Positions 2-36,707 of a stretch of 64,000 nucleotides of DNA are shown in pieces. The DNA lies in the IMG/VR virus record IMGVR_UViG_3300029953_000001. One strand, 5' to 3'. This DNA is from a virus. Under the pieces are notes generated by a model, which made no database searches, was not told where the DNA came from, and was given only the letters and a program-made list of their open reading frames with translations. Every line of letters begins with the position of its first letter. Positions within the stretch are counted from its first letter, which is position 1. A program made the translations under genes and the position numbers.

Positions 2-223
2 TTATCCCCTCTTAGTGGGCAAGTGGCTGGTACCGGTAAGGTACAACTCACTGATGGGTCGGGTATAAACACCCACATAGCTGTATTTGACGCTGCGGGA
101 ACTTTGGTTGATGGCGGACCTGTACCCAGCGGTGGTGGTAGCTTAGTTAGTTATGACTGCGGAAATTCCGCCACTTCGGGGAGCAGTTATGTGATTGAAC
201 TGGATATGGGAGCCTCAGCGTAA
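2..223 (+). CDS. Gly/Ser-rich hypothetical protein, 5' partial (frame open to window edge); likely structural, upstream of tail-fibre-like gene
   Basis: ORF 23..223 has GTG at 23 but frame stays open back to position 2; stop overlaps next start (TAATG). Composition GTGKVQLTDGSG..GGG typical of fibre proteins. Confidence 0.35.
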   Translation, partial: LSPLSGQVAGTGKVQLTDGSGINTHIAVFDAAGTLVDGGPVPSGGGSLVSYDCGNSATSGSSYVIELDMGASA

Positions 224-693
224 TGTCGGTCAATGCACGTTTTCAATTCCGTCGAGATACCGCTGCCAATTGGACAGCGAACAACCCCACCCTATTTTCA
301 GGTGAGATGGGGCTTGAAACGGATACGCGATACTTCAAACTGGGGGACGGAGCCACAGCTTGGATAAATCTAGGGTATGTAGGCGTAGGTCCGACTGGGG
401 CAACCGGAGCGAGTGCGGGTAATTTCGGATCATCCACACTAAATTTTGGTACCGGTTGCGGCGGTACGGATACCACAACCGTAGTTACAGGGCAAGCCGG
501 TATTCTTTCAACTTCCAAAATACAGTTATGGGTGGCCGGAGATACAACTACAGACCACTCACCCGATGAGCACTTACTAGCGGGACTTCAGGCAGTCGCT
601 CAGAACATAGTTGTAGGGACAGGATTTACCATTCGGGCGACTTCACAATTTTTTGTAACCGGGCACTTCACCATTCGGTGGGTGTGGAACTAA
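223..693 (+). CDS. Tail-fibre-like protein: N-terminal phage tail-fibre/HylP-type conserved motif followed by collagen-like G-x-x triplets
   Basis: Motif FRRDTAANWTANNPTLFSGEMGLETDTRYFKLGDGATAWINLGY matches the widespread phage tail fibre N-terminal repeat (R-R-x-T-x-A-x-W-x-x-x-N-P-x-L-x-x-GE-x-G-x-E-x-DT-x-x-x-K-x-GDG-x-T-x-W); then GPTGATGASAG collagen-like run. Confidence 0.6.
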   Translation: MSVNARFQFRRDTAANWTANNPTLFSGEMGLETDTRYFKLGDGATAWINLGYVGVGPTGATGASAGNFGSSTLNFGTGCGGTDTTTVVTGQAGILSTSKIQLWVAGDTTTDHSPDEHLLAGLQAVAQNIVVGTGFTIRATSQFFVTGHFTIRWVWN

Positions 694-706
694 GTTAGGA
701 GAACGT

Positions 707-2167
707 ATGCCATTTTCATTGCAAGGCGCAACATCAGGTAACGGAGCCGAGGTAGATACCCTCAATCGGCTGGAGACTGTAAGCCCAAAAACACAAGATG
801 TCAACAGCAACCCCACCAACATTGGCGGGGGCGACAGAATGGTTGTGGAAATTGATGCAGGTACGGTTACTGGGTCGCCAACAATCGTCTCTATCCTCAG
901 CAACGAGTTTCGGCGATTGAAAATCGGGTTGGAGTCTCTCCTCTTTCACGAGATGTTCAACGGTACAGCCATCAACACCTCACAGTGGTCAACAACTCTG
1001 ACGACGTTTACAAACACAGTCGCAGGGGGTAAGAGCGTATTAAACGCGGGTTCATCTGTTGCCACCAGCGCGGTTGCCGCAGTAAAGAGCTATAGGACGA
1101 TGCCTCTGTACTCGGGTTTTCCTACCATATTTGAAGCTGTGGCCTCGTATCAAGCCGCTATCTCTATCGTGCCAAACAATACCACTGAAATTGGACTGGG
1201 TTACACAGCTACAAACGCAGCACCTACGGATGGTGTGTTCTTTCGTTGGAACAACGCCGGAAACTTCGTTTGTGTTGTCAACTATGGAGGCACCGAAACT
1301 ATATCGTCCCCGTTGACCCCTCCTGTTCCAAACGACTCCCATGTATTTCGCATTGTTGTGGGGAGGCTGTATTGTTCCTTCTGGGTTGATGGCATCATGC
1401 AAGCGTATATAGCAACTCCCGCAGGAGCGGGGCTTCCTGTACAGACTCAAAATCTTCCGGTGTCCCTGCGCACCTACAACTCCACGACAAGCAGCCCCGT
1501 TTCGGCTGTACAGTTGGCCGTCTACTCTGTGAGTTGTTATTTGGGCGATCAAGACGTCAGCCGTTCGTACGAACTCGCCATGGCAGGTTTGGGTGCGAAC
1601 TCAATACAGGGTCAAACAAGTGGCACCGTTGGTACTACAGCTAACCATGCAAACTCGACAGCGGCCACAGCGGCAACCTTGTCAAACACCACGGCGGGTT
1701 ACGCAAAGCTTGGGGGTAAATTCCTCTTCTCCACCGTTGCAGGGGCTGTTACAGACTACGCCTTGTTTGCCTTTCAGGTTCCAGCGGCATCGGCAAACAC
1801 CCCCGGTAAGACTCTGTACATACGTGGGGTTCATGTTTCATCCATGAACATAGGAGCCGCCGTCGCCACTACAGCTACTGTGTTGCAGTGGGGTATCGGA
1901 GTAGGTGCTACGGCTGTCTCTTTGGCTACGGCTGAAGCGGCGACAACCAAGGCTCCTCGTGTGATTGACCTTGGATTACAGACCTTCCCAATTGGTGCTG
2001 CTATTGGGGCTATGCCTCAGAACGGTGACCTTGATGTCCAGTTTCCGTACCCGCTGATGTGTGAGGCTGGAAACTATGTTCACATCATCCTCTCCCTGCC
2101 TATTGGCACCGCAACCGCTTCTCAGCAAATTCAGGGTACTGTAGTGGTAAACGGAATGTTCGAGTAA
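707..2167 (+). CDS. Putative tail fibre / receptor-binding structural protein (486 aa, Ser/Thr/Ala/Gly-rich)
   Basis: Immediately follows tail-fibre-like gene in same orientation; beta-rich low-complexity composition; RBS-like GGAGAA before ATG; ends at strong hairpin terminator. Confidence 0.5.
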   Translation: MPFSLQGATSGNGAEVDTLNRLETVSPKTQDVNSNPTNIGGGDRMVVEIDAGTVTGSPTIVSILSNEFRRLKIGLESLLFHEMFNGTAINTSQWSTTLTTFTNTVAGGKSVLNAGSSVATSAVAAVKSYRTMPLYSGFPTIFEAVASYQAAISIVPNNTTEIGLGYTATNAAPTDGVFFRWNNAGNFVCVVNYGGTETISSPLTPPVPNDSHVFRIVVGRLYCSFWVDGIMQAYIATPAGAGLPVQTQNLPVSLRTYNSTTSSPVSAVQLAVYSVSCYLGDQDVSRSYELAMAGLGANSIQGQTSGTVGTTANHANSTAATAATLSNTTAGYAKLGGKFLFSTVAGAVTDYALFAFQVPAASANTPGKTLYIRGVHVSSMNIGAAVATTATVLQWGIGVGATAVSLATAEAATTKAPRVIDLGLQTFPIGAAIGAMPQNGDLDVQFPYPLMCEAGNYVHIILSLPIGTATASQQIQGTVVVNGMFE

Positions 2168-2587: not shown

Positions 2588-3685
2588 CTATGACTGCATC
2601 GACTGGAGAGCTTTCAGATAAGCTAACCCCGAACTTTTCGCAGTCATGGTGGGATTTCCTCTGTTGATAAATACGTCGGCTGGGGATTCGTCTGGGACAA
2701 ACCGGTCGTGGCTGGGGGAGTTGATAATTCCAGTGTTGTTGGAAATTTTCCCTCTGTAGTCCTCTGCCACGCTAATAGCCTTAGCCGGGATGTCCCGCAG
2801 GTAAGCAACCTGACCCGTCAAGTGCAAACTGACCGGCCATTCGCAGTACGCCCAGCTACTGTCGTCAAAGGCGTCACCAAATATAGTTTGAAGCTGAGCC
2901 TTCTCCTCATCCGGCAATTCATCGAACATAACCGGGAAGTCTGCATCGTCAGGGCGGAGGTCAGCCTTGTTCAGAAACTTGGTTGCGATTGCCAACGTGA
3001 CCTTGCCTGATTCTCTCTCGCCAGCTTCGTAGTGGTCGGGGTAGTTTCCGGTCATGTGCTTGTCGATAGCCAAGTAGACTGCACCACCGTCCCATTCGTT
3101 ATGGGACGAGGACTTGTCTGTCATCAGACCGTTGGCGAGGATGTCTTGCACCTTGGCCCCTACTGTACCGTGATAGAGATACGCTGGCAGCGTGTACCGC
3201 TTGTCAGCCGCAGTCTTCGGTGCGGGGTTCTCACCCTCGTTTTCTACCTGATTTTTTTCAATGGCATCGAAGGCGTAGTCGAAGGGGACTTCGAAGACCT
3301 CACCTACTCGGGAATCTTCCCAGTCATCGGGGTAGTGGGCTAGGTACATCTCAAAAGCAGAGTCCATGTCAGGGAACCCTAAAAGACACTTGTACTCGTC
3401 AAATTCCCCCTCGTCATCTAGCTGCTCCACGACGTACACATGGTCGGACTCCGTGTCCGGTCCTATGTAAACGTCAAGACCCTCGCCATCCCCAGCGGCC
3501 CTAGTTTCAGGTACAAACCCGTAATCACAAAGCATGGTTCTCTTCCATCCCTTGCCGTTATTATCCTTACCGGTGCGTACACTACCTTTCGGCCACTCAA
3601 GTACGATAGGTATTCCTCGGAATTCAGATGAGTGCATCTGAGGGAGTTTCTCGGCTCTGCGGAGGAATTTGGACTTGAAATTCAT
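2588..3685 (-). CDS. Two-domain protein: N-terminal family-I inorganic pyrophosphatase-like domain fused to C-terminal Tpt1/KptA-like (ADP-ribosyltransferase fold) domain
   Basis: N-term GIPIVLEWPKGS...MLCDYGFVPETRAAGDGEGLDVYIG matches PPase signature (xIEIPkgs..; NYGFIPqT; DGDPLDVlV). C-term YLYHGTVGAKVQDILANGL...GGAVYLAIDKH resembles KptA C-lobe FLYHGTASRFLDEIKKQGL...RHYVHLSAD (H-G-T...Y of ART fold). Confidence 0.55.
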   Translation of the reverse strand: MNFKSKFLRRAEKLPQMHSSEFRGIPIVLEWPKGSVRTGKDNNGKGWKRTMLCDYGFVPETRAAGDGEGLDVYIGPDTESDHVYVVEQLDDEGEFDEYKCLLGFPDMDSAFEMYLAHYPDDWEDSRVGEVFEVPFDYAFDAIEKNQVENEGENPAPKTAADKRYTLPAYLYHGTVGAKVQDILANGLMTDKSSSHNEWDGGAVYLAIDKHMTGNYPDHYEAGERESGKVTLAIATKFLNKADLRPDDADFPVMFDELPDEEKAQLQTIFGDAFDDSSWAYCEWPVSLHLTGQVAYLRDIPAKAISVAEDYRGKISNNTGIINSPSHDRFVPDESPADVFINRGNPTMTAKSSGLAYLKALQSMQS

Positions 3686-8035: not shown

Positions 8036-8953
8036 TCAAACTGATGGTTGGTGATGCTTCGGGGGCTTTAGGGGTGAAGGTTCCGGCTTGTGGCGCTTCT
8101 TCCACTCATCGACCAGCTTCCGCATCATCTCCGGCTTGTTCATACAGTAGTAATACCGATAACTGAGTTTGTTGTTGATAGTGGGGTCATCCTGCCCTTC
8201 CCACCGCCTGTCCTTCCAGCTTACCTGCCGCTTCACGCCGTCACTACCAATCATGGGATGCCAGACATGCAGCACAGATGTCGGGAGCGTCTTGTGAGGC
8301 CAGTACAGCGTGTCCATAGCCCTCATAGCAGCGTGATCTTCGCCACCCCATCCTCTGAAGGACTCATCCCAACCACCTACAAGCTCAAAAGCTTCGCGAG
8401 GAACGATATGAATCATCGCTCCATAGTGGTGACCCGTGCGAGGGTTGGTATCATTGATAGTTAGGCTCAGGTCAGGGGGTTCCCCCAATGGGTACGGGTT
8501 GGCAGGGCTACTGGCAAGAAGCCGTTCGCTGGCTTCCTCATTTAGACGATAGAACTGACGGTAGGGCACAAACCACAGACGACGGTCTCGCTCACGAGCA
8601 TGACGAATCTCATTGACGCAGTGCATCACATGGTCAATGGCGATAAAACCATCGGCGTCCACGATAACAAGCACATCTCCGGTAGACCGGGACACCGCAT
8701 CATTGATAGCCACGGACTTGCTGAAGGCTCTATGCGTTTCAGGGTCGTCTCCGAGTATCACCTCTGCTCCGGGAAGTTGAACCTCCCAATATTGCTTGAG
8801 CCACAGGACATTCCGTAGCCGTTCTTTAGCCTTCTCTGATGGACGAAAGGGAATGATGATACTGACCCCTTCCCCCTTCTTCTCGCGGCGGAACAAACCT
8901 AAACCCAACATAATCAGCATCGCTCCTAGAATAGTCAATATTGTTATTGTCAT
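8036..8953 (-). CDS. Membrane-anchored family-2 glycosyltransferase (GT-A fold)
   Basis: N-terminal TM helix (TITILTILGAMLIMLGLGLF), then IIIPFRPSE...VLVIVDADGF (DxD) and conserved C-terminal GWDE..F.GWGGED motif typical of GT2. Confidence 0.75.
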   Translation of the reverse strand: MTITILTILGAMLIMLGLGLFRREKKGEGVSIIIPFRPSEKAKERLRNVLWLKQYWEVQLPGAEVILGDDPETHRAFSKSVAINDAVSRSTGDVLVIVDADGFIAIDHVMHCVNEIRHARERDRRLWFVPYRQFYRLNEEASERLLASSPANPYPLGEPPDLSLTINDTNPRTGHHYGAMIHIVPREAFELVGGWDESFRGWGGEDHAAMRAMDTLYWPHKTLPTSVLHVWHPMIGSDGVKRQVSWKDRRWEGQDDPTINNKLSYRYYYCMNKPEMMRKLVDEWKKRHKPEPSPLKPPKHHQPSV

Positions 8954-9741
8954 ACTTTCAATAGACCTCCCAGCGAACGGTAGGCGTCGTAAACGTTGTA
9001 CTTGATTTCCTCAACATTGGTGCGCGTCGGCTCCTGCATCTTGCCGATGATGAACTGTGTGTTGATACTAGCACTGTAATCCCGGAACTTGAAGTCTCCC
9101 CCATCCTTATCCATCTTAGGGGTGTACTCTACCCGGCGAGGGATACCGAACGCATCGGCCACAATCATACCGTGAAGCGATGATGTGACGATACGACGAC
9201 ATGCCCCTATATCCTTGAGGACAGTGAGGGGGTCTCCGCTTGGGTGAATAACACGGACAGTGTATTTTTCAGGTACAACGGCTTTGAACTTGGGTACGAG
9301 AATGGTGTCGCTGAAGTGGGGGATGATACCCAAGTCCCATCGCTTCACCTGAGGTCCAACCAACTCATCCGCTAGAATTCCGGGATCGCCCAGCGCGTAA
9401 CTACCCGGTATTCCCCTAGCTGTGAGGGGACCACGAAGGGACAGAATCTTAGCTGTGATGCCACTCGTCATTTGTTGAATATGTAACCGGGAGGTTTCGA
9501 GCAGCCGCCCTGAACCCAAAATCACACCGTCCCACAATGGCGGAATATGCTCCAAGATTGACCCGACTGACGCTATCTGAGCATGGGATATAGTCCCCCA
9601 CTCAACTTCCAAATCAGCAAAATGCTCTAAAAGGAGGGGTGCCAAACCATCACCGAAGTTTGGCACTTCCCTCCACCAGTATGCCATTGTCTGTTGCTTG
9701 AATCGCGTCCCCATTTTACTTCTCCCGTTTTTGGTCTTCAC
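8950..9741 (-). CDS. Polysaccharide pyruvyl transferase family protein (WcaK/CsaB-like)
   Basis: N-terminal NFGDGLAPLLL (N-x-GD motif) and C-terminal VTSSLHGMIVADAFGIPRRVEYTPK resembling pyruvyl transferase signature (R/S-LH-x-x-I-x-A-x-x-G-x-P...Y-x-x-K). Confidence 0.6.
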   Translation of the reverse strand: MKTKNGRSKMGTRFKQQTMAYWWREVPNFGDGLAPLLLEHFADLEVEWGTISHAQIASVGSILEHIPPLWDGVILGSGRLLETSRLHIQQMTSGITAKILSLRGPLTARGIPGSYALGDPGILADELVGPQVKRWDLGIIPHFSDTILVPKFKAVVPEKYTVRVIHPSGDPLTVLKDIGACRRIVTSSLHGMIVADAFGIPRRVEYTPKMDKDGGDFKFRDYSASINTQFIIGKMQEPTRTNVEEIKYNVYDAYRSLGGLLKV

Positions 9742-9790
9742 TAACGAGGGGAAAAGCTTTCCTACACGATGATTATTTGATTTAGCTTTT

Positions 9791-9937
9791 TCATAGGGTG
9801 TTACAGCAGGTTTTACAGTTAAATTGAAGACCGTCTTTACTACATCTATTCTTATGGAATTGGGACGTAGGAAAGGGTTCTTGACACTTAGCGCAAATCT
9901 TATAATCCAACGCCAGTGCTTTCCTCGGCGATGACAT
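9791..9937 (-). CDS. Small Cys-rich zinc-ribbon ORF (…YKICAKCQEPFPTSQFHKNRCSKDGLQFNCKTCCNTL) resembling the N-terminal zinc finger of phage HNH endonucleases; possible remnant
   Basis: C-x2-C ... F-H-K-N ... K-D-G-L-Q ... C-x2-C pattern; start taken at internal Met of ORF 9791..10024 which otherwise overlaps 9900..10427. Confidence 0.3.
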   Translation of the reverse strand: MSSPRKALALDYKICAKCQEPFPTSQFHKNRCSKDGLQFNCKTCCNTL

Positions 9938-10427
9938 CCACGACCTCTGCATCTTCAACGTCCGCTTCAAATACTTCATCCGCAACCGGCTCAGATAATT
10001 CCACAGTGGTAGGGTCTCCTCCATCAGCCGGAGCCACAGTAATCTGCGGCTGACGAGCGTTGACCTCCTCCTGAGTCAGAGCCTCGTAACTGAAGATGAA
10101 CTCAGTTGCCTGACTTGCATCCGTGACGCCTTCGGGGAGTTCCCACTTGATGCTGAGAACCTTGGTCTCGAATGCATCGAGAGCGGATTTGGGGAGCGTT
10201 ACTTTCCCACCCTGTGCTTCGATGATGGAAGCACACAGAACCGACAGACGCTTGTTCTGCCCAACGGCCTCACGCATCTGAGGGATGAGTTGACCGAGAG
10301 CAGTCTCGGGGTCGGTGCGAAGCTTCTCATTCTCGGCCTCAAGCATGAGGATGTAGTGCATGGCCTTCTTATGAGTCTTGTTGGCGGACGGGCGGATGTT
10401 CTTGCGTTTTGCGTTGGCTGATGACAT
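9900..10427 (-). CDS. Hypothetical acidic protein (175 aa), basic N-terminus then Glu/Asp-rich tail
   Basis: ORF with good coding periodicity; no motif. Confidence 0.5.
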   Translation of the reverse strand: MSSANAKRKNIRPSANKTHKKAMHYILMLEAENEKLRTDPETALGQLIPQMREAVGQNKRLSVLCASIIEAQGGKVTLPKSALDAFETKVLSIKWELPEGVTDASQATEFIFSYEALTQEEVNARQPQITVAPADGGDPTTVELSEPVADEVFEADVEDAEVVDVIAEESTGVGL

Positions 10428-10468
10428 ACTTCCTCTTTCCTTTGGCCGGAGCCCTATTTGCGACCTTC

Positions 10469-10984
10469 TTAGCGGTCTTCTTCACTGGTTTTTGACATTG
10501 CCTCTACCCACCGAGATGTAACTAAGAAGTCACTAACGGCTTGCACAAGAGCGGGGTACACAGTCGAGTTGCCCACCAACCCAACGAGCTTGGTGAGTTC
10601 CCCCATGGCCTTGACAGCCGCGACAGCCTCGTCGCCCATGTAGGTGTAGTCTTCAGGACCACAGTCAAACTGAGCCGAACCCCACATCTCGGCGAAGGCT
10701 TCCTCGGCGAGGTTGTCTACTTTATAGTCGGGGTTCTTCTTCATCATGCGGGTCTGGGGGTCAACGATGTATGCTTCCGTGGAAGGGTTGTCCGCCTTCG
10801 GGGCAGCATCGGAGGAGAGGATGGTGGTGTCGAAGATAGGGCTCCAACCGGACTGAAGACCAACACCACTCAGCAGGTCTTCATAGTATAGGTCGTCAAT
10901 TTTGCGGTACTCTCCACTTGTAGTCTTGAAGATAGCGTTCATGGGAATCTGAGCAAATTTAGTAGGCATTATGGTCTCCATCAA
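10469..10984 (-). CDS. Hypothetical protein (171 aa)
   Basis: ORF; no motif. Confidence 0.5.
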   Translation of the reverse strand: MMETIMPTKFAQIPMNAIFKTTSGEYRKIDDLYYEDLLSGVGLQSGWSPIFDTTILSSDAAPKADNPSTEAYIVDPQTRMMKKNPDYKVDNLAEEAFAEMWGSAQFDCGPEDYTYMGDEAVAAVKAMGELTKLVGLVGNSTVYPALVQAVSDFLVTSRWVEAMSKTSEEDR

Positions 10985-11005
10985 GCTAATACTGGTTTTA
11001 CAAAA

Positions 11006-11191
11006 TTAGTGACCTATGTATCTGTCGGTTACATCCATCTCCTCGAAACGGCGGGTGATGCGCTGGCTCTTACTCGGGACGTTGAATTGTTCTCCAACAA
11101 ATGCCATCGCCGCTATCCGAGTATCCACCACGCCAACTAACTCCTCATCTTCTGAATAACCAAAATTGTCGAACAAACAATAGACCGTCAA
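11006..11191 (-). CDS. Small hypothetical protein (61 aa)
   Basis: Short ORF packed between neighbours; stop adjacent to next start. Confidence 0.35.
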   Translation of the reverse strand: MTVYCLFDNFGYSEDEELVGVVDTRIAAMAFVGEQFNVPSKSQRITRRFEEMDVTDRYIGH

Positions 11192-12286
11192 TTATTTCTC
11201 CAAGGTAATGATGCGGTTAGTGAGATCCAGTTCCTTAATGCACTTGATGACAGCATCCTTGCTCAACTGGGAGCAGACAAGGATAGGGACATTCTTTGGT
11301 GGGAAAAACTGATCGGGAGGGTAAACTATTGCATCCTCAAAGTTGTTCCAATGGTAGACCGGGTTGGAATCAGTAGCCCACAGGATTTCCACTCCTGCCG
11401 GGATGATGCCAGCAGGAACCAGCAGCCGAGTAGTCTGCCCCATCCCCCAGATGGCGAGGGCGCTGACTCCCTTTAACTCAGCGTGAAGGTGTTCCTTCAT
11501 GGTGGCAATCTGGGTGTTCAGTTTGAGGGCGTAGGCGGAGATGGCTTCACACACGTTAGAGGCGTGAGGATGAGCCAGAACCCAGATGACCGGGTAAAGT
11601 TGATTGCCTTCAGCGGTGGACTCATAGGAACTCTTGTCGTACACTTCCATGCCGACACACGCTCTGACCAAGTGGCTCAGGTCGAAGTGGTTGATGTGTT
11701 CAGCGTTGAACCCTTGACAGATGGAGTTGAAGTAGCTCACGTACTTCAAGGCGTTGGGGACTTCGATGTAGATGGAGCCGTGGGGCTTCACCCAACGCTT
11801 CAAATTGTGGAGAAAACCCTGCACGTCGGGGACATGTTCCAGCACGTGGGAAACGGTAATGAGGTCATACGTATTCGGGAGCCATGCTTCCACACCGCAG
11901 CACCGAGCCTTCAACCCTTTGGCTGTGCAGCAATCGACTTCGGCCTGAGAGAGGCTGATACCTTCCACGTTGGTAAATCCGGCTGCGATGAACGCCTCCA
12001 TAAGCCCACCAGTCGCACACCCCACGTCCAGTACCGACGTGTTTACGGTAGCTCCGGCTCTCATAGTGTTGGCTACGATGGCACGGTAGTGAGCCTTCTG
12101 GGCATTGTAGGTGCCGGAAGCATAGATGGATTCCTTGCCATAGTCGATTACAGGGGTGTGGGTGGCGTACACCATCTGGCACTTCTCACAGCTAACAATC
12201 TGCTGGCCGGTGGGAGTGGTGTACAGCAATTCATTCAAGGAGTAATCGCAGCAGGGACAATGTCGTTCAGGCTTACTTGGGTTCAT
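11192..12286 (-). CDS. SAM-dependent methyltransferase with N-terminal zinc-ribbon and C-terminal C-methyltransferase-like domain (NDP-sugar C-methyltransferase architecture, TylC3-like)
   Basis: CPCCDYS...SCEKCQ zinc ribbon; SAM motif I VLDVGCATGG; acidic D after beta2; ~120-aa C-terminal extra domain as in sugar C-methyltransferases. Confidence 0.7.
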   Translation of the reverse strand: MNPSKPERHCPCCDYSLNELLYTTPTGQQIVSCEKCQMVYATHTPVIDYGKESIYASGTYNAQKAHYRAIVANTMRAGATVNTSVLDVGCATGGLMEAFIAAGFTNVEGISLSQAEVDCCTAKGLKARCCGVEAWLPNTYDLITVSHVLEHVPDVQGFLHNLKRWVKPHGSIYIEVPNALKYVSYFNSICQGFNAEHINHFDLSHLVRACVGMEVYDKSSYESTAEGNQLYPVIWVLAHPHASNVCEAISAYALKLNTQIATMKEHLHAELKGVSALAIWGMGQTTRLLVPAGIIPAGVEILWATDSNPVYHWNNFEDAIVYPPDQFFPPKNVPILVCSQLSKDAVIKCIKELDLTNRIITLEK

Positions 12287-12827
12287 ACTTATCCTTCAGT
12301 ACCTTCATCCGGTATGCTTCCTGAGCCAGACCTAGATGTTCGAGGATGGGCATCACGTAATCGTTCGACCGCTCAAGGCGGATGGCATGGGGCGGGAGTA
12401 CGGCTTCAATCTTGGGGGCGAAGGAGTCCGACGCTTCTCTGTCCTGCTGCACCCTGCCGGTGCCGTGGAACTTGAAGTCGTCGTTGCGGGGAAGGTAGAA
12501 GACGATGTTGTCGTACTCGTTGAAGTAGGCGTGGACTACATCCACCAGTTCAGGCTTGGGGTCGGTCGCGTAGACGATGCCGAGAAGAAGGGACGTGTCA
12601 GTGACCGCGTAGTCGATGTTCTCCAGACGGGATAGCTTGCGGTTCTGCTTTGCCAGAATGTAAAGCTGGTCGGCAAGGATGTTTCCTCTGTGCTCATACA
12701 CCATATCCTTTGCATACTCGCTGGCGTACTCCACGCTCAAACCCATACGCTTCATGTAGTACAGGAGCCCGTAGACGGTGGTGGATTTGCCGGTGTTCGA
12801 TGCTCCGATGAGATTGATGACCTTCAT
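12273..12827 (-). CDS. P-loop kinase-like protein (T4 gp1 dNMP kinase / AAA_28-like)
   Basis: Walker A at extreme N-terminus MKVINLIGASNTGKST, comparable with T4 dNMP kinase MKLIFLSGVKRSGKDT; size 184 aa. Confidence 0.6.
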   Translation of the reverse strand: MKVINLIGASNTGKSTTVYGLLYYMKRMGLSVEYASEYAKDMVYEHRGNILADQLYILAKQNRKLSRLENIDYAVTDTSLLLGIVYATDPKPELVDVVHAYFNEYDNIVFYLPRNDDFKFHGTGRVQQDREASDSFAPKIEAVLPPHAIRLERSNDYVMPILEHLGLAQEAYRMKVLKDKYEPK

Positions 12828-13084
12828 TTTTTGCCCTCGGCCACATTACCCGGCCAGAGTTTGTGTTTGTTTCCACGGGCATGGTCAGCAGGGCAAGGCA
12901 ACTCCACCCCTTCTGGTTCCCAGCCAGTGAAAGCGATACCCCAAGCAGCGCGGAGAGCTTGCCAGTCCTTCTGCTTGTCGCAGTGTTCACACTCACCGGG
13001 AGCGTGAAGGATTCTCTGGTCACAGTGGGGGAATTGCTCGATGGAGTCGAGGATATTGATTTCGGTTTTGATTTTCTTGAACAT
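12824..13084 (-). CDS. Small Cys/His-rich protein (86 aa)
   Basis: ORF with HCDQ...ECEHCDKQ metal-binding-like pairs. Confidence 0.45.
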   Translation of the reverse strand: MFKKIKTEINILDSIEQFPHCDQRILHAPGECEHCDKQKDWQALRAAWGIAFTGWEPEGVELPCPADHARGNKHKLWPGNVAEGKK

Positions 13085-15221: not shown

Positions 15222-15491
15222 TCACGAATTCGGTACTTTAGTGCAGGGACACATGGGGTTCACACACGGAATCTCTTCCGGCTTATCCCGCATCTTCCGG
15301 TTGTATTCTGCCTTCTCCTTCGCATGGTTGCGTAGCCTCTGGATGGGTTCGGCAAGGGCTTGAACGAAGCTACCCCACTGCGACACTGACTCCAAGCAGG
15401 GGTCGCCGTCAGTCTCCCGGATGAACTTGAGTGCCTTGGTCGCCAGTGTGTCGGCAAACTCGAATATGTCAACGTCAATCTTTAGACCCAT
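15222..15491 (-). CDS. Small hypothetical protein (89 aa)
   Basis: ORF between helicase and NADAR genes. Confidence 0.4.
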   Translation of the reverse strand: MGLKIDVDIFEFADTLATKALKFIRETDGDPCLESVSQWGSFVQALAEPIQRLRNHAKEKAEYNRKMRDKPEEIPCVNPMCPCTKVPNS

Positions 15492-16102
15492 GCTGGCAAC
15501 TCGCTCCTCGTCTTGCTACAGGTTTTGCACTTGTGGGCGTTCTGCCGACAATCGGCATCACACTGCTGTGCGTCATCATTGCCGGGAGCGATGAATTCGT
15601 GGATGTGGAAGTCCGGGCTCTTTACTTCTTCACGGACTATCATCCAAAGCTTGCCCAGCATGTTGTGGCCGTTGCCGTCCTCTCCCCAGCCCCAAAATGA
15701 ATCCCGATAGGAGTCTTCAATCAACTCACGGGTACCGGTTTCCATGAGCTTACGACGCACGTACTCATGCTGATACGCCTTAGCCCTGAGCAAGTCCTGC
15801 ATGATGCCAGTCCTTACATCTTCCCAATCGGGACGACGGTACTCTGTGTACTGAGCGGCAGTCTTGAAGGCTTCGTGAGCAGAGGGAGCCTTGATGATGC
15901 TCTGTTGAATGCCGAACACGGTCAGTCTATCCAGAGCCCCCTCGGGTCTGTAGTTGAACTTCTCCCAGTGGTACGCTGCTTCAGACGTGTCGAAGCGGAT
16001 ACCCTTCCACTGAAGGGTGAAGGACGAGAAGTTGGACAGGACGTAGAAGTCCTGCTCGTAGAAGAATACCTGCTGGTCGGTGTCGAGTTTATGGTTCGCC
16101 AT
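15482..16102 (-). CDS. NADAR (YbiA-like, DUF1768) domain protein
   Basis: FFYEQDFYVLSNFSSF...TSEAAYHWEKF and DSFWGWGEDGNGHNMLGKLWM match E. coli YbiA blocks (FYS..fSNF..., tsEHYFQAqKF, dayWGdGghGkGkNrLG.lLM) from memory. Confidence 0.85.
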   Translation of the reverse strand: MANHKLDTDQQVFFYEQDFYVLSNFSSFTLQWKGIRFDTSEAAYHWEKFNYRPEGALDRLTVFGIQQSIIKAPSAHEAFKTAAQYTEYRRPDWEDVRTGIMQDLLRAKAYQHEYVRRKLMETGTRELIEDSYRDSFWGWGEDGNGHNMLGKLWMIVREEVKSPDFHIHEFIAPGNDDAQQCDADCRQNAHKCKTCSKTRSELPAWV

Positions 16103-16108
16103 ACTAAC

Positions 16109-16546
16109 CTAATACCCCGGAACGGGGGAAGGTCGGCCCAGATAGCTAAACTTTGCCTCCCCGGAGCGTTCATCCACATGGTCTAATTCGGCTAAGAAAG
16201 CCAGCACATCCCCATGGCACAGATACTTCGGCTTACACCAGCAGCCCAAGGTCTTCCCGCGTAACTCTGGGAGACGGACAACTAAGTTGGGCATGGATAG
16301 GACGTACCTACGGTACTTCTCAAGCACGACCTTGCGGTTGCCGTCGTAGCCAAGGCGGAAGGGATTGTGCCAGTCGGACTGGGAGAACTCCAAGAACGAC
16401 CGGCCAATGTAGATGTCAAACTGAGGGCTCTTCCTTACATGCACAACTGTTGTCAATTCGTTGTCCTCTAAATGAAAAATCTTCCATGCTATCCGCCGTA
16501 CATAGGGTTCTAATACTGGTGATTTTTGATTTTTGACAGTTGGCAC
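16109..16546 (-). CDS. DUF4326 domain protein
   Basis: FDIYIGR...W.NPFRLG...YRRYV...LPELRGKTLGCWCKPKYLCHGDVLAFLAEL matches DUF4326 consensus (YIGRGS.WGNPF...LRGK.LGCWC.P..CHGDVL). Confidence 0.75.
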   Translation of the reverse strand: MPTVKNQKSPVLEPYVRRIAWKIFHLEDNELTTVVHVRKSPQFDIYIGRSFLEFSQSDWHNPFRLGYDGNRKVVLEKYRRYVLSMPNLVVRLPELRGKTLGCWCKPKYLCHGDVLAFLAELDHVDERSGEAKFSYLGRPSPVPGY

Positions 16547-20902: not shown

Positions 20903-23900
20903 CTAACGGCCTCTCCTATGGAAGGGGTTTCGGACTACATCACCCATAGAACTTTCCGTAATTCTTTGAATTTTTCGCATCCGCTCAAGAATCTGGAGGT
21001 CCCGCAAGATAACACCGTCCATATTAATGATAGCCCCTGAAGGGAGGTTCATTTGCTGTGCGATGAGTAGTGACTGACCGGAGGGGTCAATTTTCAAACC
21101 ACCTTCTTCCATGAGCCACTTTTGAGCCTTCCATGCACAGAGTTGAGCCGCGTCCACCATGTCATCATGGCTACCCTTTTCAAGCGGAGCCGCGACCCGA
21201 ATCTGGTACTTGTTAACGTACTCAGCTTCGACCAACCGCAGTTCCTTGAGGAACTTTGGAACGTAGGGGAACCGGCAGCGGGTATCGCGGACATAACCTT
21301 GGAGCACGAAAGCCATCTGTGAGTTCAATGTCGCCGTGAGGTTCACGAGTTCAATGTTGTGAATCTTGTTGAGTTCGAGCAACTGCACAAGCTGCTGTCC
21401 CCCGTGTTGGTCGGTTGCACCACGCCAGCAGGGCATCAGTACATTCAGAGCCTTGAGCCACGCTAGGATGTCTTCCAGCGGGAGAGCCTTGAATCCGACG
21501 TACTTCTCCAATCCCTGTATGTGTCCCACACCGGGGCCTTCAAACTTCTCCCCGACCATCATACGGTCGATGTAGTCATAGACCAAGTGAATCGGCTGTG
21601 AACCCCCGACATACTCCAAGTGGCCGATTGCGACCGCCGTAGCGTCATGACTCATACCCAAGTCGATTGCCCAGAAATACTGGCGACCGATGTCCTTGGG
21701 ATGGAAGTGAGACAGGTTGAACCGAGCAGAAGTTTCGTCGGGCTCTTCAAAACCACCATTCGTCTTGACATACTTCACATCAGTGCAAGCCTGAATTTGT
21801 GCTTCAGTCAAGTACGATTCAGAAGACTCAAGGAAGTTACCCCCGTATTCAGCCTTGAACGTGAGTGGGTTCTTGGTATACTCCGAACGCAGGGTTTCGG
21901 ACAGGATGGTAGGGTTCATCTCCGCTGTGGATAGCCGGATGGTGAATACCTTAGTCTCCTTCGCACCACGCTCCATGGCGTCCTTGTGAATGTCGAACAT
22001 CTTACCGACCTTCGTCCAAGGGCTGGAGATGGAAAGCACAAGAGAGTCTTGGAAGGATTTGTATTCCTCCGGCTTCATAGTGGCCGCAGCGACGAGTTGG
22101 TCTACCCAGCCGCCCTTGAGGTCTTCCGCGTGCTTGAAGTTGACTGTAGACGGCGTGGCGGCTCCGTAGACCTCATCTGAGGATGAGCCCTTGGAGGAAC
22201 GGAAGTGAGCGAACTCGTCCAGAGCGAGGAAGATATTCGAAGGGCCACGGACGGCATTGGTTGTGCTGGCGTAGCTTTTGACGTTAATGGACGGAGTAAC
22301 GTCACGCTTGTGACGGTCAGCTTCAGACACGAAGCCCATCCATGATGAACTGGAAGCCTTCAGATACGGGTTGAAGAAAGGAGCCCGGTTGATGTCTTCG
22401 CGGAGCTTGTCGTAGAGACGGTTGGCACCCTCTTCGTCCTGAGCCATGAATGTGAAGTCGATGTGCGACCCGGCGATGAGGCCGAAGTATTCCTGAGGCG
22501 ACCGGATGTTTAGCAGTTTGTAGAGCTTGTAGGCACCGATGGCGGACACTACCTGAGAGTTGTGGGTGACATTGAAGTTCTTGCCGAACAAATACAGACT
22601 GGTAGGGTTGGTAGTGGTAATACACCGCATGGGCATCCTACCGACAGGTTGAATGTCAGTGATGAACCTCCATTTTTGAGTGGAGTTTACTGTACTAGGG
22701 AGTTCTGCCAATTTCCTTGGAAGACGGAAGACCGGTAGGGTGCCTGTCCATGTTACCCTGTATTTCTCGCCGCAATCCCGGTCATTTAGGATAGCTCTGC
22801 CCTCCCCCCAATAGGGTTTCAGTCCGAGTGAAGCAGCGAGGTGGTATACCCCCTCCGCCAAACTACGATTTGTGTTTGTGAAGTCACATCGGCTGCGGCT
22901 GCAACTCCCATCTGTGTCCATCAGCCCCTGCAACAGAGATAACCTTTGCGGCTCGGACGCCCATAGATATTGATGAGGGATGTGCTTGTTCTTCAAGACT
23001 CCAAGTTGACGCAAGGGAGAGAACAACCCCAGTACGTGCCACCGAGTGGGTGCTTTCTCGTTTTGGTAGAAAGTCATACCCGCCGATTCAAAGTAGGGTA
23101 GTATCTTGTCTGCATCTTCTGGGGCAGCGGTGATAATCCCGCAATCGCTATTTCCATCCCCCAGCCATACCCCCAAACAGTAAGGGTCGAGAAGCAGGTC
23201 AATGTCAGGACAGGTTACTGCCTTTGCAAGTGGGATGCAGTGGTTTGTTTCCTGTTTCTTACCCACCCTTAGAGTAGCTAGGAGTTCTTCGGTAGTGCGC
23301 GTAGTGCCCCCAATGGCGTGCTTAGAACACTTGGCGGCTTTCCGGTCAACCTTGGTTAGGGTGTTCCACAGGTGACCGCCATGGGCGAATACGTGTGTAC
23401 CATCATCAAAGGAGACCTTGAACGCCTCTAACTCTTCAACTGGATGAGCGTACTTTACTTTGTAAACCTGTCCATCCTCACCGAATACGGCGTCTCCTTC
23501 TTCTAAATCGCCGTTTCGCTTACATCCATCTGGTGTTGGGATAGGCTCATCAACGTGAAGCATCTTCCCGCCACGCCGACCCGCAAAAATCGCCGCCTCT
23601 GTGAAGCCCCTCTCCGGCATGTCCCGCCAGTCATTGACGTTGCAACGTCCTTCTTCATGAAGGATATGCAGGCACTCTTCCTCGCTGCACTCGCGAACAG
23701 GGTTCTCGCGGAACACATCCCACATCTGTACCTTAATAGGAGCGAAGTCAATTGGAACTGCGAAGATACACTTCACAATCAACCGCTGAAGCGGGTACAG
23801 TTTAATGTTCAGACCTTGTGGTGACTCGATAAATTCAATGGCATTGAGAAGTTTACTCGCATCTTCTATGGCTCCATCTATGACTTTTCCAAAAACACTA

Positions 23901-23938
23901 CTGTCTGTCGGTTTTGTAAAACGTTGCCCACGGGCCAT
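20903..23938 (-). CDS. terL: Terminase large subunit (ATPase + nuclease) interrupted by an intein
   Basis: Extein Walker A reconstituted as AGRRGGK|S across intein; Walker B-like LALDEFAHF; terminase-size C-extein (~550 aa); intein with Hint blocks and two LAGLIDADG motifs. Confidence 0.85.
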   Translation of the reverse strand: MARGQRFTKPTDSSVFGKVIDGAIEDASKLLNAIEFIESPQGLNIKLYPLQRLIVKCIFAVPIDFAPIKVQMWDVFRENPVRECSEEECLHILHEEGRCNVNDWRDMPERGFTEAAIFAGRRGGKMLHVDEPIPTPDGCKRNGDLEEGDAVFGEDGQVYKVKYAHPVEELEAFKVSFDDGTHVFAHGGHLWNTLTKVDRKAAKCSKHAIGGTTRTTEELLATLRVGKKQETNHCIPLAKAVTCPDIDLLLDPYCLGVWLGDGNSDCGIITAAPEDADKILPYFESAGMTFYQNEKAPTRWHVLGLFSPLRQLGVLKNKHIPHQYLWASEPQRLSLLQGLMDTDGSCSRSRCDFTNTNRSLAEGVYHLAASLGLKPYWGEGRAILNDRDCGEKYRVTWTGTLPVFRLPRKLAELPSTVNSTQKWRFITDIQPVGRMPMRCITTTNPTSLYLFGKNFNVTHNSQVVSAIGAYKLYKLLNIRSPQEYFGLIAGSHIDFTFMAQDEEGANRLYDKLREDINRAPFFNPYLKASSSSWMGFVSEADRHKRDVTPSINVKSYASTTNAVRGPSNIFLALDEFAHFRSSKGSSSDEVYGAATPSTVNFKHAEDLKGGWVDQLVAAATMKPEEYKSFQDSLVLSISSPWTKVGKMFDIHKDAMERGAKETKVFTIRLSTAEMNPTILSETLRSEYTKNPLTFKAEYGGNFLESSESYLTEAQIQACTDVKYVKTNGGFEEPDETSARFNLSHFHPKDIGRQYFWAIDLGMSHDATAVAIGHLEYVGGSQPIHLVYDYIDRMMVGEKFEGPGVGHIQGLEKYVGFKALPLEDILAWLKALNVLMPCWRGATDQHGGQQLVQLLELNKIHNIELVNLTATLNSQMAFVLQGYVRDTRCRFPYVPKFLKELRLVEAEYVNKYQIRVAAPLEKGSHDDMVDAAQLCAWKAQKWLMEEGGLKIDPSGQSLLIAQQMNLPSGAIINMDGVILRDLQILERMRKIQRITESSMGDVVRNPFHRRGR
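22559..23563 (-). mobile_element. Intein (~335 aa) with double LAGLIDADG homing-endonuclease domain inserted in TerL P-loop
   Basis: Begins immediately after GK of Walker A; LGVWLGDGNS and LLQGLMDTDGS (LAGLIDADG x2); C-terminal block G ...FNVTHN followed by +1 Ser; block F has Cys (MRCITT) at canonical Asp position; Trp in block B region. Confidence 0.75.
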
Positions 23939-31724: not shown

Positions 31725-32237
31725 TCATTTCTTACCTATAGCCATAGTTTCCTTACGAATTTTCGCCTCATTTATTTGCATTTCATCACGGTAGTGCCGC
31801 ATAATACTTGTTCGCAGGTCTTCTCCCACCCCAGCCTCTTTCAACGCTTTGACAAAGCTATCAACAATAACCCCCAATACATAGGTGAATTTTGCCCCGT
31901 CAAAGTTGAGAACGTCCTTCTTGCTCAAGTAGTCTGCGTCACCCAACTGCTTGCCGAGTTCACGCAACGCTCTCAGTTGCTGCTCGTAGACTTTCAACCG
32001 GGTGGTGTCCATTGGCCCATCGCCAAGGCAGTCGCTCAAGTCTTCGGCTACTCTGGCAATCTCTACGGCAATCATACGGCTGGCTTCAGCGGGGTCGTAG
32101 TTCGGGTTAGTAATGCTCTCCCGAATGTTCTCCACACGTTCCCTGCGGATACGGCGGTCTTTCTCCCGTTCCGATTCAAGCACCGTGATGCTGCCGTCTT
32201 CATTCACTTCTACACCGCTGGTATTCCTACCGCTCAT
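31725..32237 (-). CDS. Hypothetical protein (170 aa)
   Basis: ORF coupled to upstream HEG stop (ATGA). Confidence 0.5.
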   Translation of the reverse strand: MSGRNTSGVEVNEDGSITVLESEREKDRRIRRERVENIRESITNPNYDPAEASRMIAVEIARVAEDLSDCLGDGPMDTTRLKVYEQQLRALRELGKQLGDADYLSKKDVLNFDGAKFTYVLGVIVDSFVKALKEAGVGEDLRTSIMRHYRDEMQINEAKIRKETMAIGKK

Positions 32238-32791
32238 ACCTTCACCCTTCGCTTTTTATGAGATTCGGATATTTTTCTCCGCGTTTCATCAGACACCTTG
32301 TGCCCTAAAAGCTTACTTGAAATTCTTGCTCTCACTTCTTCCGTAACAACTTGCCCCACTAACTTACTTCGGTGGGAGGCACTCAGTTTACGCCCGGTTA
32401 GCTTCTGCGAGATTCTTGCTCTCAGTTGCTCATCCCTTACACCACCCTTATTTGCTATCCCAATCTTCCTTTTCGTTTCTTCTGAATGGCTCCAACCTGT
32501 GATGCCTTCTCCGCCAAGAGTAAGATTGTAGCCATACTCAGACTTTGAAGATTCAAACTGTTTAATAAACTGTTGCTCTAAAATAGACAACTGTTCATTT
32601 GAATCCGCTGATGCTAACTCTTCAACTACAAAAACCTCAGCACCGTACTTTCTTATGGCCTTATGGATGTACGTCCTACTACCGTGTTTTGCGGCGGACA
32701 CATGCTTAACCCATCGCGACCCGGTACTCTCAACGGTCTTACCTACATACACTTTGCCGTTGATAGTATTTCTTACGAGGTACACCTTCAT
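32234..32791 (-). CDS. GIY-YIG homing endonuclease with NUMOD3-like repeats
   Basis: KVYLVRNTINGKVYVGKT...EYGYNLTLGG (GIY-YIG + YGYN) then SEETKRKIG, SASHRSKL, SDETRRKISESHK repeats. Confidence 0.85.
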   Translation of the reverse strand: MKVYLVRNTINGKVYVGKTVESTGSRWVKHVSAAKHGSRTYIHKAIRKYGAEVFVVEELASADSNEQLSILEQQFIKQFESSKSEYGYNLTLGGEGITGWSHSEETKRKIGIANKGGVRDEQLRARISQKLTGRKLSASHRSKLVGQVVTEEVRARISSKLLGHKVSDETRRKISESHKKRRVKV

Positions 32792-34994: not shown

Positions 34995-35291
34995 TTATAC
35001 CACAGCCGAGGCTGCTTTCTCCTTCTTCAAGAGGGTTGTGAAACTCTTTACCTTATTAGCACAAGCGCGGCTACAATGCTTGCGATTGTATAGTTTGGTT
35101 ACCCACCGCTTGCTCTGTTGAGTAGATAATAACTGCACAGGGTTGCAGCAGACCTCGCAACGTGTCGGGTTCTGCCTGTACTCAGCTAGTGCTTGTTCAA
35201 ACTCTGTTTTAGTACTGGAACTACCCACATAGGACTTCCCTGTGACAGTATTCAGCCAACGATAGACACCGAGATTGAAGGGGTTAGCCAT
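34995..35291 (-). CDS. Small GIY-YIG domain protein with C-terminal zinc finger (98 aa)
   Basis: LGVYRWLNTVTGKSYVGSS (GIY-YIG-like) and CEVCCN...HCSRAC. Confidence 0.5.
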   Translation of the reverse strand: MANPFNLGVYRWLNTVTGKSYVGSSSTKTEFEQALAEYRQNPTRCEVCCNPVQLLSTQQSKRWVTKLYNRKHCSRACANKVKSFTTLLKKEKAASAVV

Positions 35292-35293
35292 CG

Positions 35294-35629
35294 TCAGAAC
35301 GAAAGGTCGTCCAGTATCGCAGCTAGGAAACTCGCAGGATTATCCACAGGAGCAGCTTTCAAGCTTTCTCCATTATCTACCTCGTCCCCTGAAAGTCTCA
35401 TGACCTTGTTTCCTTGTACTACCCAGAAATCACGTGAAGACTCACAGATAAATTGGTTCCCTGCGACCCTTGTTAAACCAAGCGAGGCAATCTTTTGGCG
35501 AACCTCCGGCGACAGCGTAGTCTCCGAAGAAAAGTGGTTTTTGGAAAAGACGGACTCTGTGGTTTTACTCCCACCTAGTCCGAAAGATGCAGTAGCACGA
35601 AGCTTAGCCATTTTTAGTACCCTCACCAA
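35294..35629 (-). CDS. Hypothetical protein (111 aa)
   Basis: ORF only. Confidence 0.45.
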   Translation of the reverse strand: MVRVLKMAKLRATASFGLGGSKTTESVFSKNHFSSETTLSPEVRQKIASLGLTRVAGNQFICESSRDFWVVQGNKVMRLSGDEVDNGESLKAAPVDNPASFLAAILDDLSF

Positions 35630-35689
35630 TAGAGGTTCATAGTTCTAAAACTTTTCCCAAGAAAAACCCCGAATTATGATTTACAAACT

Positions 35690-36676: not shown

Positions 36677-36707
36677 AAGGGCAGCAACTTCGGTTGCTGC
36701 CCTTTTT
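36677..36707 (+). terminator. Rho-independent terminator (AAGGGCAGCAAC-TTCG-GTTGCTGCCCTT + TTTTT)
   Basis: 12-bp perfect stem, tetraloop, T-run on plus strand; between convergent genes. Confidence 0.7.

Follow-up and report, generated by a model that had tools for sequence, protein, structure and literature searches.

A 64-kb stretch of viral DNA from IMG/VR record IMGVR_UViG_3300029953_000001 (hereafter, the window) was analysed for a group of putative glycan-modifying genes on its minus strand. The window carries a large terminase gene and is part of a large tailed phage, represented by a contig of at least 130 kb; all negative results given for the window cover these 64 kb. Seven open reading frames (ORFs) occupy the minus strand between positions 8036 and 12827, and four of them encode enzymes: a glycosyltransferase (GT2), a pyruvyl-transferase-family protein (PvT), a methyltransferase (MT) and a P-loop protein. 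A preliminary description of the region had presented these as one contiguous block. The four ORFs lie exactly where that description placed them, but three further ORFs are found between them and the block as a whole is not a conserved unit. What is conserved is the pair formed by PvT and GT2. The features of the window are collected in Table 1.

In the pair, the stop codon of PvT overlaps the start codon of GT2 (ATGA). Relatives were gathered as 17 IMG/VR loci, fetched with PvT as the query, together with the cultured Tunturiibacter phage Tunturi_5, giving 18 first-round loci. A GT2 homologue directly follows PvT in every one of them, down to 35% and 39% identity. Of the 27 phage-type loci examined in all, every one but L033 and L035 has the two genes side by side or fused (25 of 27). 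Sequence identity to relatives amounts to 62–74% for PvT and 56–63% for GT2, versus 58% for the SNF2 helicase and 42–64% for other neighbouring genes. Variants of the pair number in the hundreds, on contigs of 130–894 kb; for the unfused PvT there are 829 homologues, and the best 120 of them (63–83% identity) come from contigs as long as 894 kb. A conserved third partner gene was sought across 23 loci, and beyond close relatives only the pair itself was retained. PvT and GT2 form a core pair of genes in a large clade of soil jumbo phages, Tunturi_5 among them, and occur together in actinobacterial phages as well. The hosts of phages bearing this module include Acidobacteriota, mycolic-acid Actinobacteria and probably Pseudomonadota. 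The conserved core pair was absent from the preliminary description, as were the fusions of its two genes, the homology to glycosyltransferases (GTs) of phages Che8 and Corndog, and a second GT cluster at 36.7–39.0 kb, all of which are presented below.

Table 1. Features of the 64-kb window discussed in the text (positions are those of the window; aa, amino acids)
Feature	Position	Strand	Description
GT2	8036–8953	-	305 aa GT-A (GT2, beta4GalT-like) glycosyltransferase with N-terminal membrane anchor
PvT	8950–9741	-	PF04230 pyruvyl-transferase family, minimal GT-B-like enzyme, ~254 aa
g9900	9900–10427	-	175 aa, no family assigned, acidic C-terminus, upstream of PvT gene
ORF without family	10469–10984	-	171 aa, between pair and MT; variable insert
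ORF without family	11006–11191	-	61 aa, between pair and MT; variable insert
MT	11192–12286	-	364 aa methyltransferase dependent on S-adenosylmethionine (SAM), three-part architecture
P-loop protein	12273–12827	-	184 aa, AAA_28, nucleoside/nucleotide-kinase-like
86-aa ORF	12824–13084		Cys/His-rich, directly upstream of P-loop gene
NADAR protein	15482–16102	-	upstream of block
DUF4326 protein	16109–16546	-	upstream of block
Second GT cluster	36706–38972	-	222-aa GT2 (38304–38972) and 533-aa two-domain GT (36706–38307); Pfam matches
ORFs flanking second GT cluster	35690–36481; 39122–39886	+	Ser/Thr-rich, apparently beta-rich
Mtd_N protein	223–693		156 aa, Mtd_N domain (1.6e-14)
ORF after Mtd_N protein	707–2167		486 aa
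InPase/PARP-like protein	2588–3685		365 aa, InPase domain (1.7e-34), weak PARP-catalytic-like match
Large terminase	20903–23938		1011 aa
Homing-endonuclease-like gene	32234–32791		GIY-YIG and NUMOD3
Homing-endonuclease-like gene	40033–40794		GIY-YIG
Homing-endonuclease-like gene	43646–44296		NUMOD3
GmrSD_N protein	46940–47806		GmrSD_N (DUF262-type) domain, 1.1e-17

The PvT ORF comprises 263 codons, although the protein is likelier to be 254 aa long, starting from the ATG at 9714. It scores 35.7 bits against PF04230 (cutoff 25.3, E 1.2e-8), with a match that spans model positions 124–272 of 280 and corresponds to the C-terminal half only. The N-terminal half bears a YWW...NFGD motif that is invariant in its family, and homologues of PvT carry PF04230 in their precomputed domain lists. 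Searches of the PDB with the single PvT sequence returned nothing significant. Since a PvT profile likewise did not reach Pvg1p, the yeast pyruvyltransferase, structure prediction and a fold search were used. The AlphaFold2 model (pLDDT 89.4, pTM 0.88) returned Pvg1p (PDB code: 5ax7) as the top Foldseek match in the PDB, with an E-value of 4.7e-5 and a probability of 1.00. Further neighbours with GT-B-like folds are SenB and the protein rhamnosyltransferase EarP. By hidden Markov model (HMM) and predicted fold, PvT is a member of PF04230, and the polysaccharide pyruvyl transferase-like enzyme of the preliminary description is borne out.

Residues invariant in the PvT alignment are N28-F-G-D31, R103-G, G118-D-P, H142, S187-S-L-H190-G, D196, R202, K218 and D221. 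Phosphoenolpyruvate (PEP) is bound by R148, R306, H308 and K328 in CsaB and by R217, R337, H339 and K361 in Pvg1p (PMC10435577). By inspection of motifs, as distinct from a residue-level structural alignment, the invariant R103 (RGP), H190 (SSLHG) and K218 (FKF) of PvT fall at the motif positions of CsaB R148, H308 and K328. PvT shares the family HMM and the GT-B-like fold of CsaB-type enzymes, and its invariant Arg, His and Lys lie in what would be the PEP-site motifs. In the known systems, namely CsaB with its TagA-type step in the synthesis of secondary cell-wall polymers of Paenibacillus alvei and Bacillus anthracis and the PF04230 enzymes Pvg1p, WcaK, GumL and PssM, a sugar is added and is then pyruvylated from PEP. 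The phage pair departs from this group in several respects. At about 250 aa PvT is smaller than CsaB-type enzymes (~330–400 aa); its partner is a beta4GalT-like GT-A enzyme, often fused to it, where CsaB is partnered by the GT26 enzyme TagA; and the pair is encoded by lytic jumbo phages.

GT2 matches two Pfam families, PF10111 (37.2 bits, cutoff 27.3) and PF02709 (25.9 bits, cutoff 23). The DXD (D99-A-D101) and GWGGED motifs are conserved, the fold is of the GT-A type, and the protein ends in a Pro-rich tail. A single-sequence search of the PDB with GT2 gave nothing significant; the closest structures are K4CP, beta4GalT7, SpsA and heparosan synthase, all of which build onto a sugar already in place. 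A transmembrane (TM) helix is predicted at residues 2–21 from hydropathy, as distinct from a topology predictor: the 17-residue Kyte-Doolittle maximum is 2.52 for ILTILGAMLIMLGLGLF, which is followed by RREKK. A hydrophobic N-terminal anchor with a basic cluster is seen in the window GT2, in Tunturi_5 (provided that the start codon overlapping the stop of the preceding gene is used) and in 10 of 16 relatives encoded as separate genes. The TM-anchored GT2 proposed earlier accordingly holds in family, DXD motif, GT-A fold and hydropathy.

Among 50,697 GenBank phage records, GT2 finds only Tunturi_5 and 153 actinophage records, which include Che8 gp109 and Corndog gp37. The identity to gp109 and gp37 is 25–27% over 67–90% of the query (E 4e-12 to 2e-10); in a local database the E-values are 1.6e-14 and 1.5e-14, respectively, and both proteins belong to phrog_1721, as does GT2. 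Within the GT2/GT7 clan, GT2 is an inverting GT-A enzyme distantly homologous to the Che8 gp109 family. The clusters in which these homologues lie (Che8 gp108–110 and Corndog gp35–38) encode soluble GT-A glycosyltransferases, whereas the window GT2 is membrane-anchored, comes from a phage of a different host phylum and is only about 25% identical. A pyruvyl transferase is part of the window module and of neither the Che8 nor the Corndog cluster.

In Tunturi_5 the pair is located at 246958–248696 of PP885688.1, where gp300 is PvT (PF04230) and gp301 is GT2. GenBank labels both 'galactosyl transferase', and the Tunturi paper lists them under that name only, as auxiliary genes. The start of gp301 probably lies about 39 nt further upstream, overlapping the gp300 stop, which would restore the N-terminal TM segment. 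The neighbours of the pair in this genome are genes for a DNA methyltransferase, an exonuclease subunit and an RtcB-type tRNA ligase, and a RimK-like gene.

PvT and GT2 also occur as single-ORF fusions, identified in L017/L018 and in Tsukamurella soli; these are 45% identical over their full length. With the Tsukamurella protein as query, about 100 fused protein clusters of 463–897 aa were found, on phage-like contigs and in Tsukamurella and Mycolicibacterium records. The T. soli fusion (NZ_BAABFR010000026.1, L037:7989–9560) lies in a prophage-like region that also encodes an endolysin, an HNH endonuclease, a Ro-like RNA-binding protein, a phrog_388 nucleotidyltransferase and homologues of Che8 gp108 and gp110. 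The last two are its neighbours (gp110 homologue, 38% identity, 5e-37; gp108 homologue, 35%, 5e-33). The region resembles a Che8-type GT trio whose gp109-type enzyme gained a pyruvyl-transferase domain. Other architectures were noted: protein P0311 extends the PvT-GT2 fusion at its C-terminus by a TM helix, a linker rich in Pro and Thr and a LysM domain; a LysM domain is likewise listed for P0316; and P0360 joins a PvT to a class I methyltransferase domain at the C-terminus.

GT2 is interrupted at two different conserved motifs by homologous inteins; these are about 348 aa long, begin with Cys and end in ...YFTGN, with Ser as the next residue. The first site is inside FRGWGGED (L004:11474–13477) and the second follows the Phe of the PF-SK motif (protein P0296). 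Proteins P0302, P0326 and P0340, of similar length (856–897 aa), probably have one at the second site too, as judged by length. Inteins are unusual in a glycosyltransferase, and their presence suggests that the gene is a stable, conserved target.

It is likely that the pair is a functional unit for glycosyl transfer and pyruvylation. The best reading of its activity is probably sugar transfer followed by PEP-dependent ketal pyruvylation, where the order, the sugar and the PEP donor are taken from the enzyme families. GT2 would take a hexose-type sugar from a nucleotide-sugar donor and attach it to an acceptor sugar already present, and the translationally coupled PvT would then use PEP to place a ketal-pyruvate on that sugar, giving an anionic cap that would block chain extension. 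The fusions argue for one substrate on which both steps act. As in the CsaB system, the reaction would be expected at the cytoplasmic face of the host membrane.

Host surface glycan and virion decoration are the two leading readings of what the pair modifies. The single most likely acceptor would be a polyprenyl-linked precursor of a host envelope glycan, favoured because this is the substrate class of bacterial ketal-pyruvyltransferases such as CsaB, which acts on a disaccharide linked to a lipid pyrophosphate (PMC10435577). The N-terminal anchors of GT2, the TM helix and LysM domain of P0311 and the LysM domain of P0316 also count for a membrane-proximal acceptor. The outcome would be a cell-surface polymer that is remodelled or capped during infection, which may help to mask receptors, to exclude other phages or to take over the host. 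The assignment of the acceptor to a lipid-linked or envelope glycan of the host is tentative.

Several observations weigh against a host envelope acceptor or against the activities assumed for it. The TM-scores between the PvT model and Pvg1p are low (0.44 and 0.36), and the equivalent of CsaB R306 appears to be Ser188 in PvT, a further difference from that enzyme. Six of the 16 separately encoded GT2s have no anchor, and 101 of 102 fused forms are without a TM segment; membrane tethering is therefore not obligatory. The acceptor layer itself is pure inference. Surface glycans differ among the host phyla concerned, a diversity easier to reconcile with an acceptor that travels with the phage, or with a universal precursor, than with a polymer specific to the host. 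It is unusual for 'moron' genes of host conversion to be so conserved and to contain inteins. Finally, outside the clade of the window phage, the only GT2 homologues among GenBank phages are the actinophage GTs of virion-glycosylation clusters, and the Tsukamurella fusion adjoins Che8 gp108 and gp110 homologues.

The last two points lead to the virion as acceptor, which is possible if somewhat unlikely. In the manner of the GT clusters of mycobacteriophages Che8, Corndog and Myrna, GT2 would extend, and PvT would cap with pyruvate, O-linked glycans on capsid, tail or fibre proteins of the phage; MT and the second GT cluster would contribute further residues. The Che8 and Corndog GT clusters are reported to glycosylate capsid and tail-tube proteins (Freeman 2023, as cited in PMC12363180 and PMC11256854). 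The restriction of GT2 matches to Tunturi_5 and the actinophages, the methyltransferase that the Corndog cluster also holds, and the gp110 and gp108 homologues beside the Tsukamurella fusion are all consistent with a virion acceptor. So are features of the module itself: it does not follow host phylum, it is highly conserved, and most of its fused forms are soluble. Pvg1p, a pyruvyl transferase able to act on protein-linked glycans (PMC10435577), provides a precedent for such a transfer. In the window, the second GT cluster adjoins Ser/Thr-rich, apparently beta-rich proteins; in Tunturi_5 a GT (gp35) follows tail-fibre genes, and Tunturi_4 has a GT between its terminase and portal genes.

The complete Che8-type system was nevertheless not recovered. 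Searches by tblastn (E<=0.01) with Che8 gp108 and gp110 and Corndog gp36 and gp38 found nothing in the 64-kb window or the jumbo-phage loci, so these have no homologue of the essential initiating GT (Che8 gp110, Corndog gp38) or of gp108; the GTs at 36.7–39.0 kb in the window are unrelated to them. No further GT lies near the fusions in L045 and L046, which stand alone, and the identity between GT2 and gp109 is only about 25%, within a very broad superfamily. Glycosylation of virions leaves the TM anchor of the window GT2 and the forms with TM helix and LysM domain hard to explain, and the pair lies among early or DNA-metabolism-type genes, not structural genes. The Che8 major capsid (L047:5051–5872) and tail-tube (L047:7613–8422) proteins and the Corndog major capsid protein (L031:8324–9556) all end in Gly-Ser, a motif common to the proteins reported to be glycosylated at their C-termini. 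No credible ORF of the window ends in this way, and the major capsid protein was not identified there. The only candidate for such an acceptor, the ORF at 35193–35642, was rejected as apparently spurious, having a TTG start and an implausible low-complexity sequence.

That the acceptor lies outside host envelope, virion and DNA altogether is doubtful. Within this group, another soluble acceptor (a small molecule, a nucleotide sugar, a host protein or an RNA such as a glycosylated tRNA base) is distinctly unlikely. Its attraction is that most fused forms are soluble, that the Tunturi_5 genome has 43 tRNAs and places the pair next to genes for an RtcB-type tRNA ligase and a RimK-like protein, that the Tsukamurella fusion is beside a Ro-like RNA-binding protein and a nucleotidyltransferase, and that the fold neighbours of PvT include EarP and SenB. 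There is, however, no specific evidence for any acceptor of this kind, and the membrane anchors would be unexplained. To our knowledge, all characterised PF04230 enzymes act on glycans, which also speaks against it.

The preliminary description had further assumed that MT and the P-loop protein belong with the pair in a single cassette. MT matches Methyltransf_23 (4e-19) and is built from a four-Cys Zn ribbon (C10, C13, C33, C36), a class I MT domain and a C-terminal Rossmann-like domain. In an alignment of 40 sequences, C13, C33, C36, G89-x-x-x-G93 and E196-H197 are invariant, and C10 is retained in at least 90%. The family profile aligns with the 3-C-methyltransferases MtmC, TcaB9 and KijD1 (E 6e-17), enzymes of the TylC3 type that share the three parts and the E-H dyad. 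Profile positions 30–334 align with MtmC residues 52–373, a stretch that includes the second CxxC, the SAM domain and the dyad and takes in most of the C-terminal domain. The residues E196-H197 are part of FNxEHINHF and are matched to HEH in MtmC; in TcaB9 the active-site dyad is E224 and H225. The profile and the invariant residues thus confirm the three-domain architecture of C-methyltransferases acting on nucleoside diphosphate (NDP)-sugars that had been proposed. In contrast to the NDP-hexose 3-C-methyltransferases, to which its identity is below 20%, MT has no match to PF08421 or PF08484 at E<=0.01, and neither domain is in the precomputed lists of 120 homologues, some of which bear PF22674 (C2185-like_N) instead. 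As these C-methyltransferase-specific domains do not match, MT is regarded as a related but separate family.

Homologues of MT with 30–47% identity lie in glycan contexts. In a bacterial locus (L023) the surrounding genes encode a nucleotidyltransferase, a dehydratase, a DegT aminotransferase, an epimerase, a thiamine pyrophosphate enzyme, NeuB and a GT2, which corresponds to an NDP-sugar pathway; the order is GT1-MT-GT2-GT2-GT2 in a phage locus (L025) and epimerase-MT-GT2 in L026. Because its homologues sit in NDP-sugar and GT clusters, MT is probably glycan-related, as an accessory, lineage-specific addition. No genes for NDP-4-keto-sugar enzymes, including a 4,6-dehydratase or a ketoreductase, were found in the window. 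Pyruvyl-transferase and methyltransferase genes come together elsewhere, in the P0360 fusion and in L039, where two FkbM methyltransferases adjoin a PvT homologue. The latter locus (L039:6347–8831, Rhodobacterales bacterium HKCCE4037) has a PvT homologue of 33% identity and the two FkbM-type genes inside a suf operon, in the order sufB-like, MT, MT, PvT, sufC, sufD, sufS.

The P-loop protein belongs to Pfam AAA_28, as do all 40 of its aligned homologues, and to phrog_2107, annotated 'thymidylate kinase'. A single-sequence search of the PDB gave nothing significant. A 40-sequence profile reached only deoxyguanosine kinase (2jaq, 2.5e-5) and the ribosylnicotinamide-kinase domain of NadR (1lw7, 0.01), and no T4 gp1 chain was among the PDB matches of either query. 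Its identification as a gp1-type deoxynucleoside monophosphate kinase is accordingly rejected, so that of the four family assignments made earlier those of GT2, PvT and MT hold and that of the P-loop protein does not. The family comprises 3274 representative homologues, stand-alone proteins of about 175 aa scattered through jumbo phages (GAP32, CcrBL9, Lak, Tunturi_5), which the window protein resembles in its Walker A motif, its size (~175–185 aa) and its profile matches. It differs from them in that its gene, as read from the sequence, overlaps the MT start by 14 nt. In Tunturi_5 the homologue (50% identity) lies about 160 kb from the pair, between DNA-ligase genes. The P-loop protein is likely to be unrelated to the pair, and its gene is probably a nucleotide-metabolism gene outside the glycan module.

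A single pathway, in which the kinase and MT make a methylated donor, GT2 transfers it and PvT finishes the product, is very unlikely. The four genes are on the same strand within 4.8 kb, overlapping or tightly spaced, and the MT family is glycan-associated, but the full layout recurs only in one very close relative (L019; MT 70% and P-loop protein 82% identical). In none of the 18 first-round loci is MT or the P-loop gene within 10 kb of the pair. In the related phage L028, an MT relative of 57% identity is present without the P-loop gene, and L021 likewise has MT without it. Since the SNF2 gene lies directly upstream of the g9900-PvT-GT2 block in L005 and L012, the segment 10469–12827 behaves as an insert. 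Together with the position of the P-loop gene in Tunturi_5 and the wide, stand-alone distribution of its family, these findings dispose of an obligate four-gene operon and leave the single cassette unsupported, while a glycan-modifying role is well supported for GT2, PvT and MT. Within the insert, MT would probably supply or modify a methylated sugar, either for the glycan of the pair or for that of the second GT cluster, alongside the unrelated AAA_28 nucleoside/nucleotide-kinase-like protein.

Least tenable is DNA hypermodification, in which GT2 would glycosylate a modified base (for example a 5-hydroxymethyl-pyrimidine), PvT and MT would decorate the sugar and the kinase would handle the nucleotide. 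GT-A enzymes can glycosylate DNA, as does the base J glucosyltransferase, and inteins favour DNA-metabolism genes. The pair lies among DNA and nucleotide genes both in the window (SNF2, NADAR, DUF4326, metallophosphoesterase) and in Tunturi_5 (DNA methyltransferase, exonuclease subunit), with a nucleoside-kinase-like P-loop gene adjacent in the window phage. That gene is unlinked to the pair in other genomes and, not being gp1-like, lends no support to hypermodification, contrary to what had been suggested for it. This reading is highly improbable in view of the lack of a thymidylate-synthase-like hydroxymethylase, DpdA or other base-modification gene among the approximately 65 window ORFs scanned, the ThyX, dCMP deaminase and dUTPase of Tunturi_5 (a canonical deoxythymidine triphosphate supply), the GmrSD_N nuclease of the window phage and the GmrSD-like protein of Tunturi_5, whose family attacks glycosylated DNA, and the membrane anchor, which argues against a DNA substrate. 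The Tunturi_5 supplement contains no 'hydroxymethyl' annotation, and we know of no precedent for pyruvylated DNA sugars.

The second GT cluster could supply further steps of a phage-made glycan. Its 533-aa protein combines a GT2-like N-terminus with a Fringe/Galactosyl_T-like (GT31-like) C-terminus. The cluster has no counterpart in Tunturi_5, and its closest phage matches are in Salinibacter phages. In turn, gp30–36 and gp49–50 of Tunturi_5 have no counterparts in the window.

The three ORFs that separate the pair from MT gave no Pfam, PHROG or NCBIfam match above threshold, and NCBIfam also gave none for GT2, PvT or the P-loop protein; a sub-threshold match to DUF7336 was seen for the 61-aa ORF. 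Relatives of g9900 with 43–58% identity (tblastn) are found directly upstream of the PvT gene in L003–L012 and L019, and it is absent from distant pair-carrying loci. It may be an accessory of the pair or simply syntenic. The ORFs at 10469–11191 show weak similarity in L008–L011 and have positional equivalents in L019. The 86-aa ORF upstream of the P-loop gene has a sub-threshold HEWD match and a homologue in L012 on the opposite side of the SNF2 gene. It does not complete a longer P-loop protein: the C-terminal extension of the 270-aa protein in L019 is a different one.

Upstream of the block, genes for an SNF2 helicase and the NADAR and DUF4326 proteins follow on the same strand. Together with the InPase/PARP-like gene, the NADAR and DUF4326 genes suggest an ADP-ribosylation-related set, for or against host defence. 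The phage itself carries a type IV restriction-like nuclease, the GmrSD_N protein, whose gene is probably the one named 'DUF262' in the preliminary description; gp317 of Tunturi_5 is also GmrSD/BrxU-like. The Mtd_N protein and the ORF that follows it (223–2167) may represent a diversity-generating-retroelement target gene or a receptor-binding protein. In the large terminase the PHROG matches are split into N- and C-terminal stretches, and the protein may contain an intein or insertion. Homing-endonuclease-like genes are present at three further sites (Table 1). No tRNA genes were found in the window, a scan for promoters and terminators gave a signal not above that of shuffled controls, and megablast of the region against GenBank phages gave no nucleotide-level match. 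When IMG/VR was scanned by sequence pattern, no close relatives of MT or of the P-loop protein turned up.

Phage-encoded glycosyltransferases are known from O-antigen conversion, from glucosylation of T4 DNA and from the virion glycans of mycobacteriophages. A full-text search of the literature found no functional study of a phage-encoded pyruvyl transferase. In a huge clade of soil jumbo phages, most of them uncultured, few genes are better conserved than the pair described here. This conservation, the fusions in actinobacterial phages and the inteins speak for an important function that does not depend on the host, and against a dispensable 'moron' gene. As Tunturi_5 and its host, Tunturiibacter psychrotolerans X4BP1, are in culture, the question of the acceptor is directly testable. 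It is conceivable, if on balance not probable, that across a very large clade of soil jumbo phages the pair decorates virions with glycans capped by pyruvate, joined in the present lineage by MT and the second GT cluster. Virion glycosylation would then be seen for the first time in phages other than actinobacteriophages, as would a pyruvylated glycan in any virus, and the resulting anionic sugar coat would change the adsorption, stability and recognition of particles in soil. A pyruvylated sugar on phage DNA would be more radical still, and is by far the least probable outcome. If the acceptor is instead a universal lipid-linked precursor, the pair would represent a new way of taking over or masking the host envelope.

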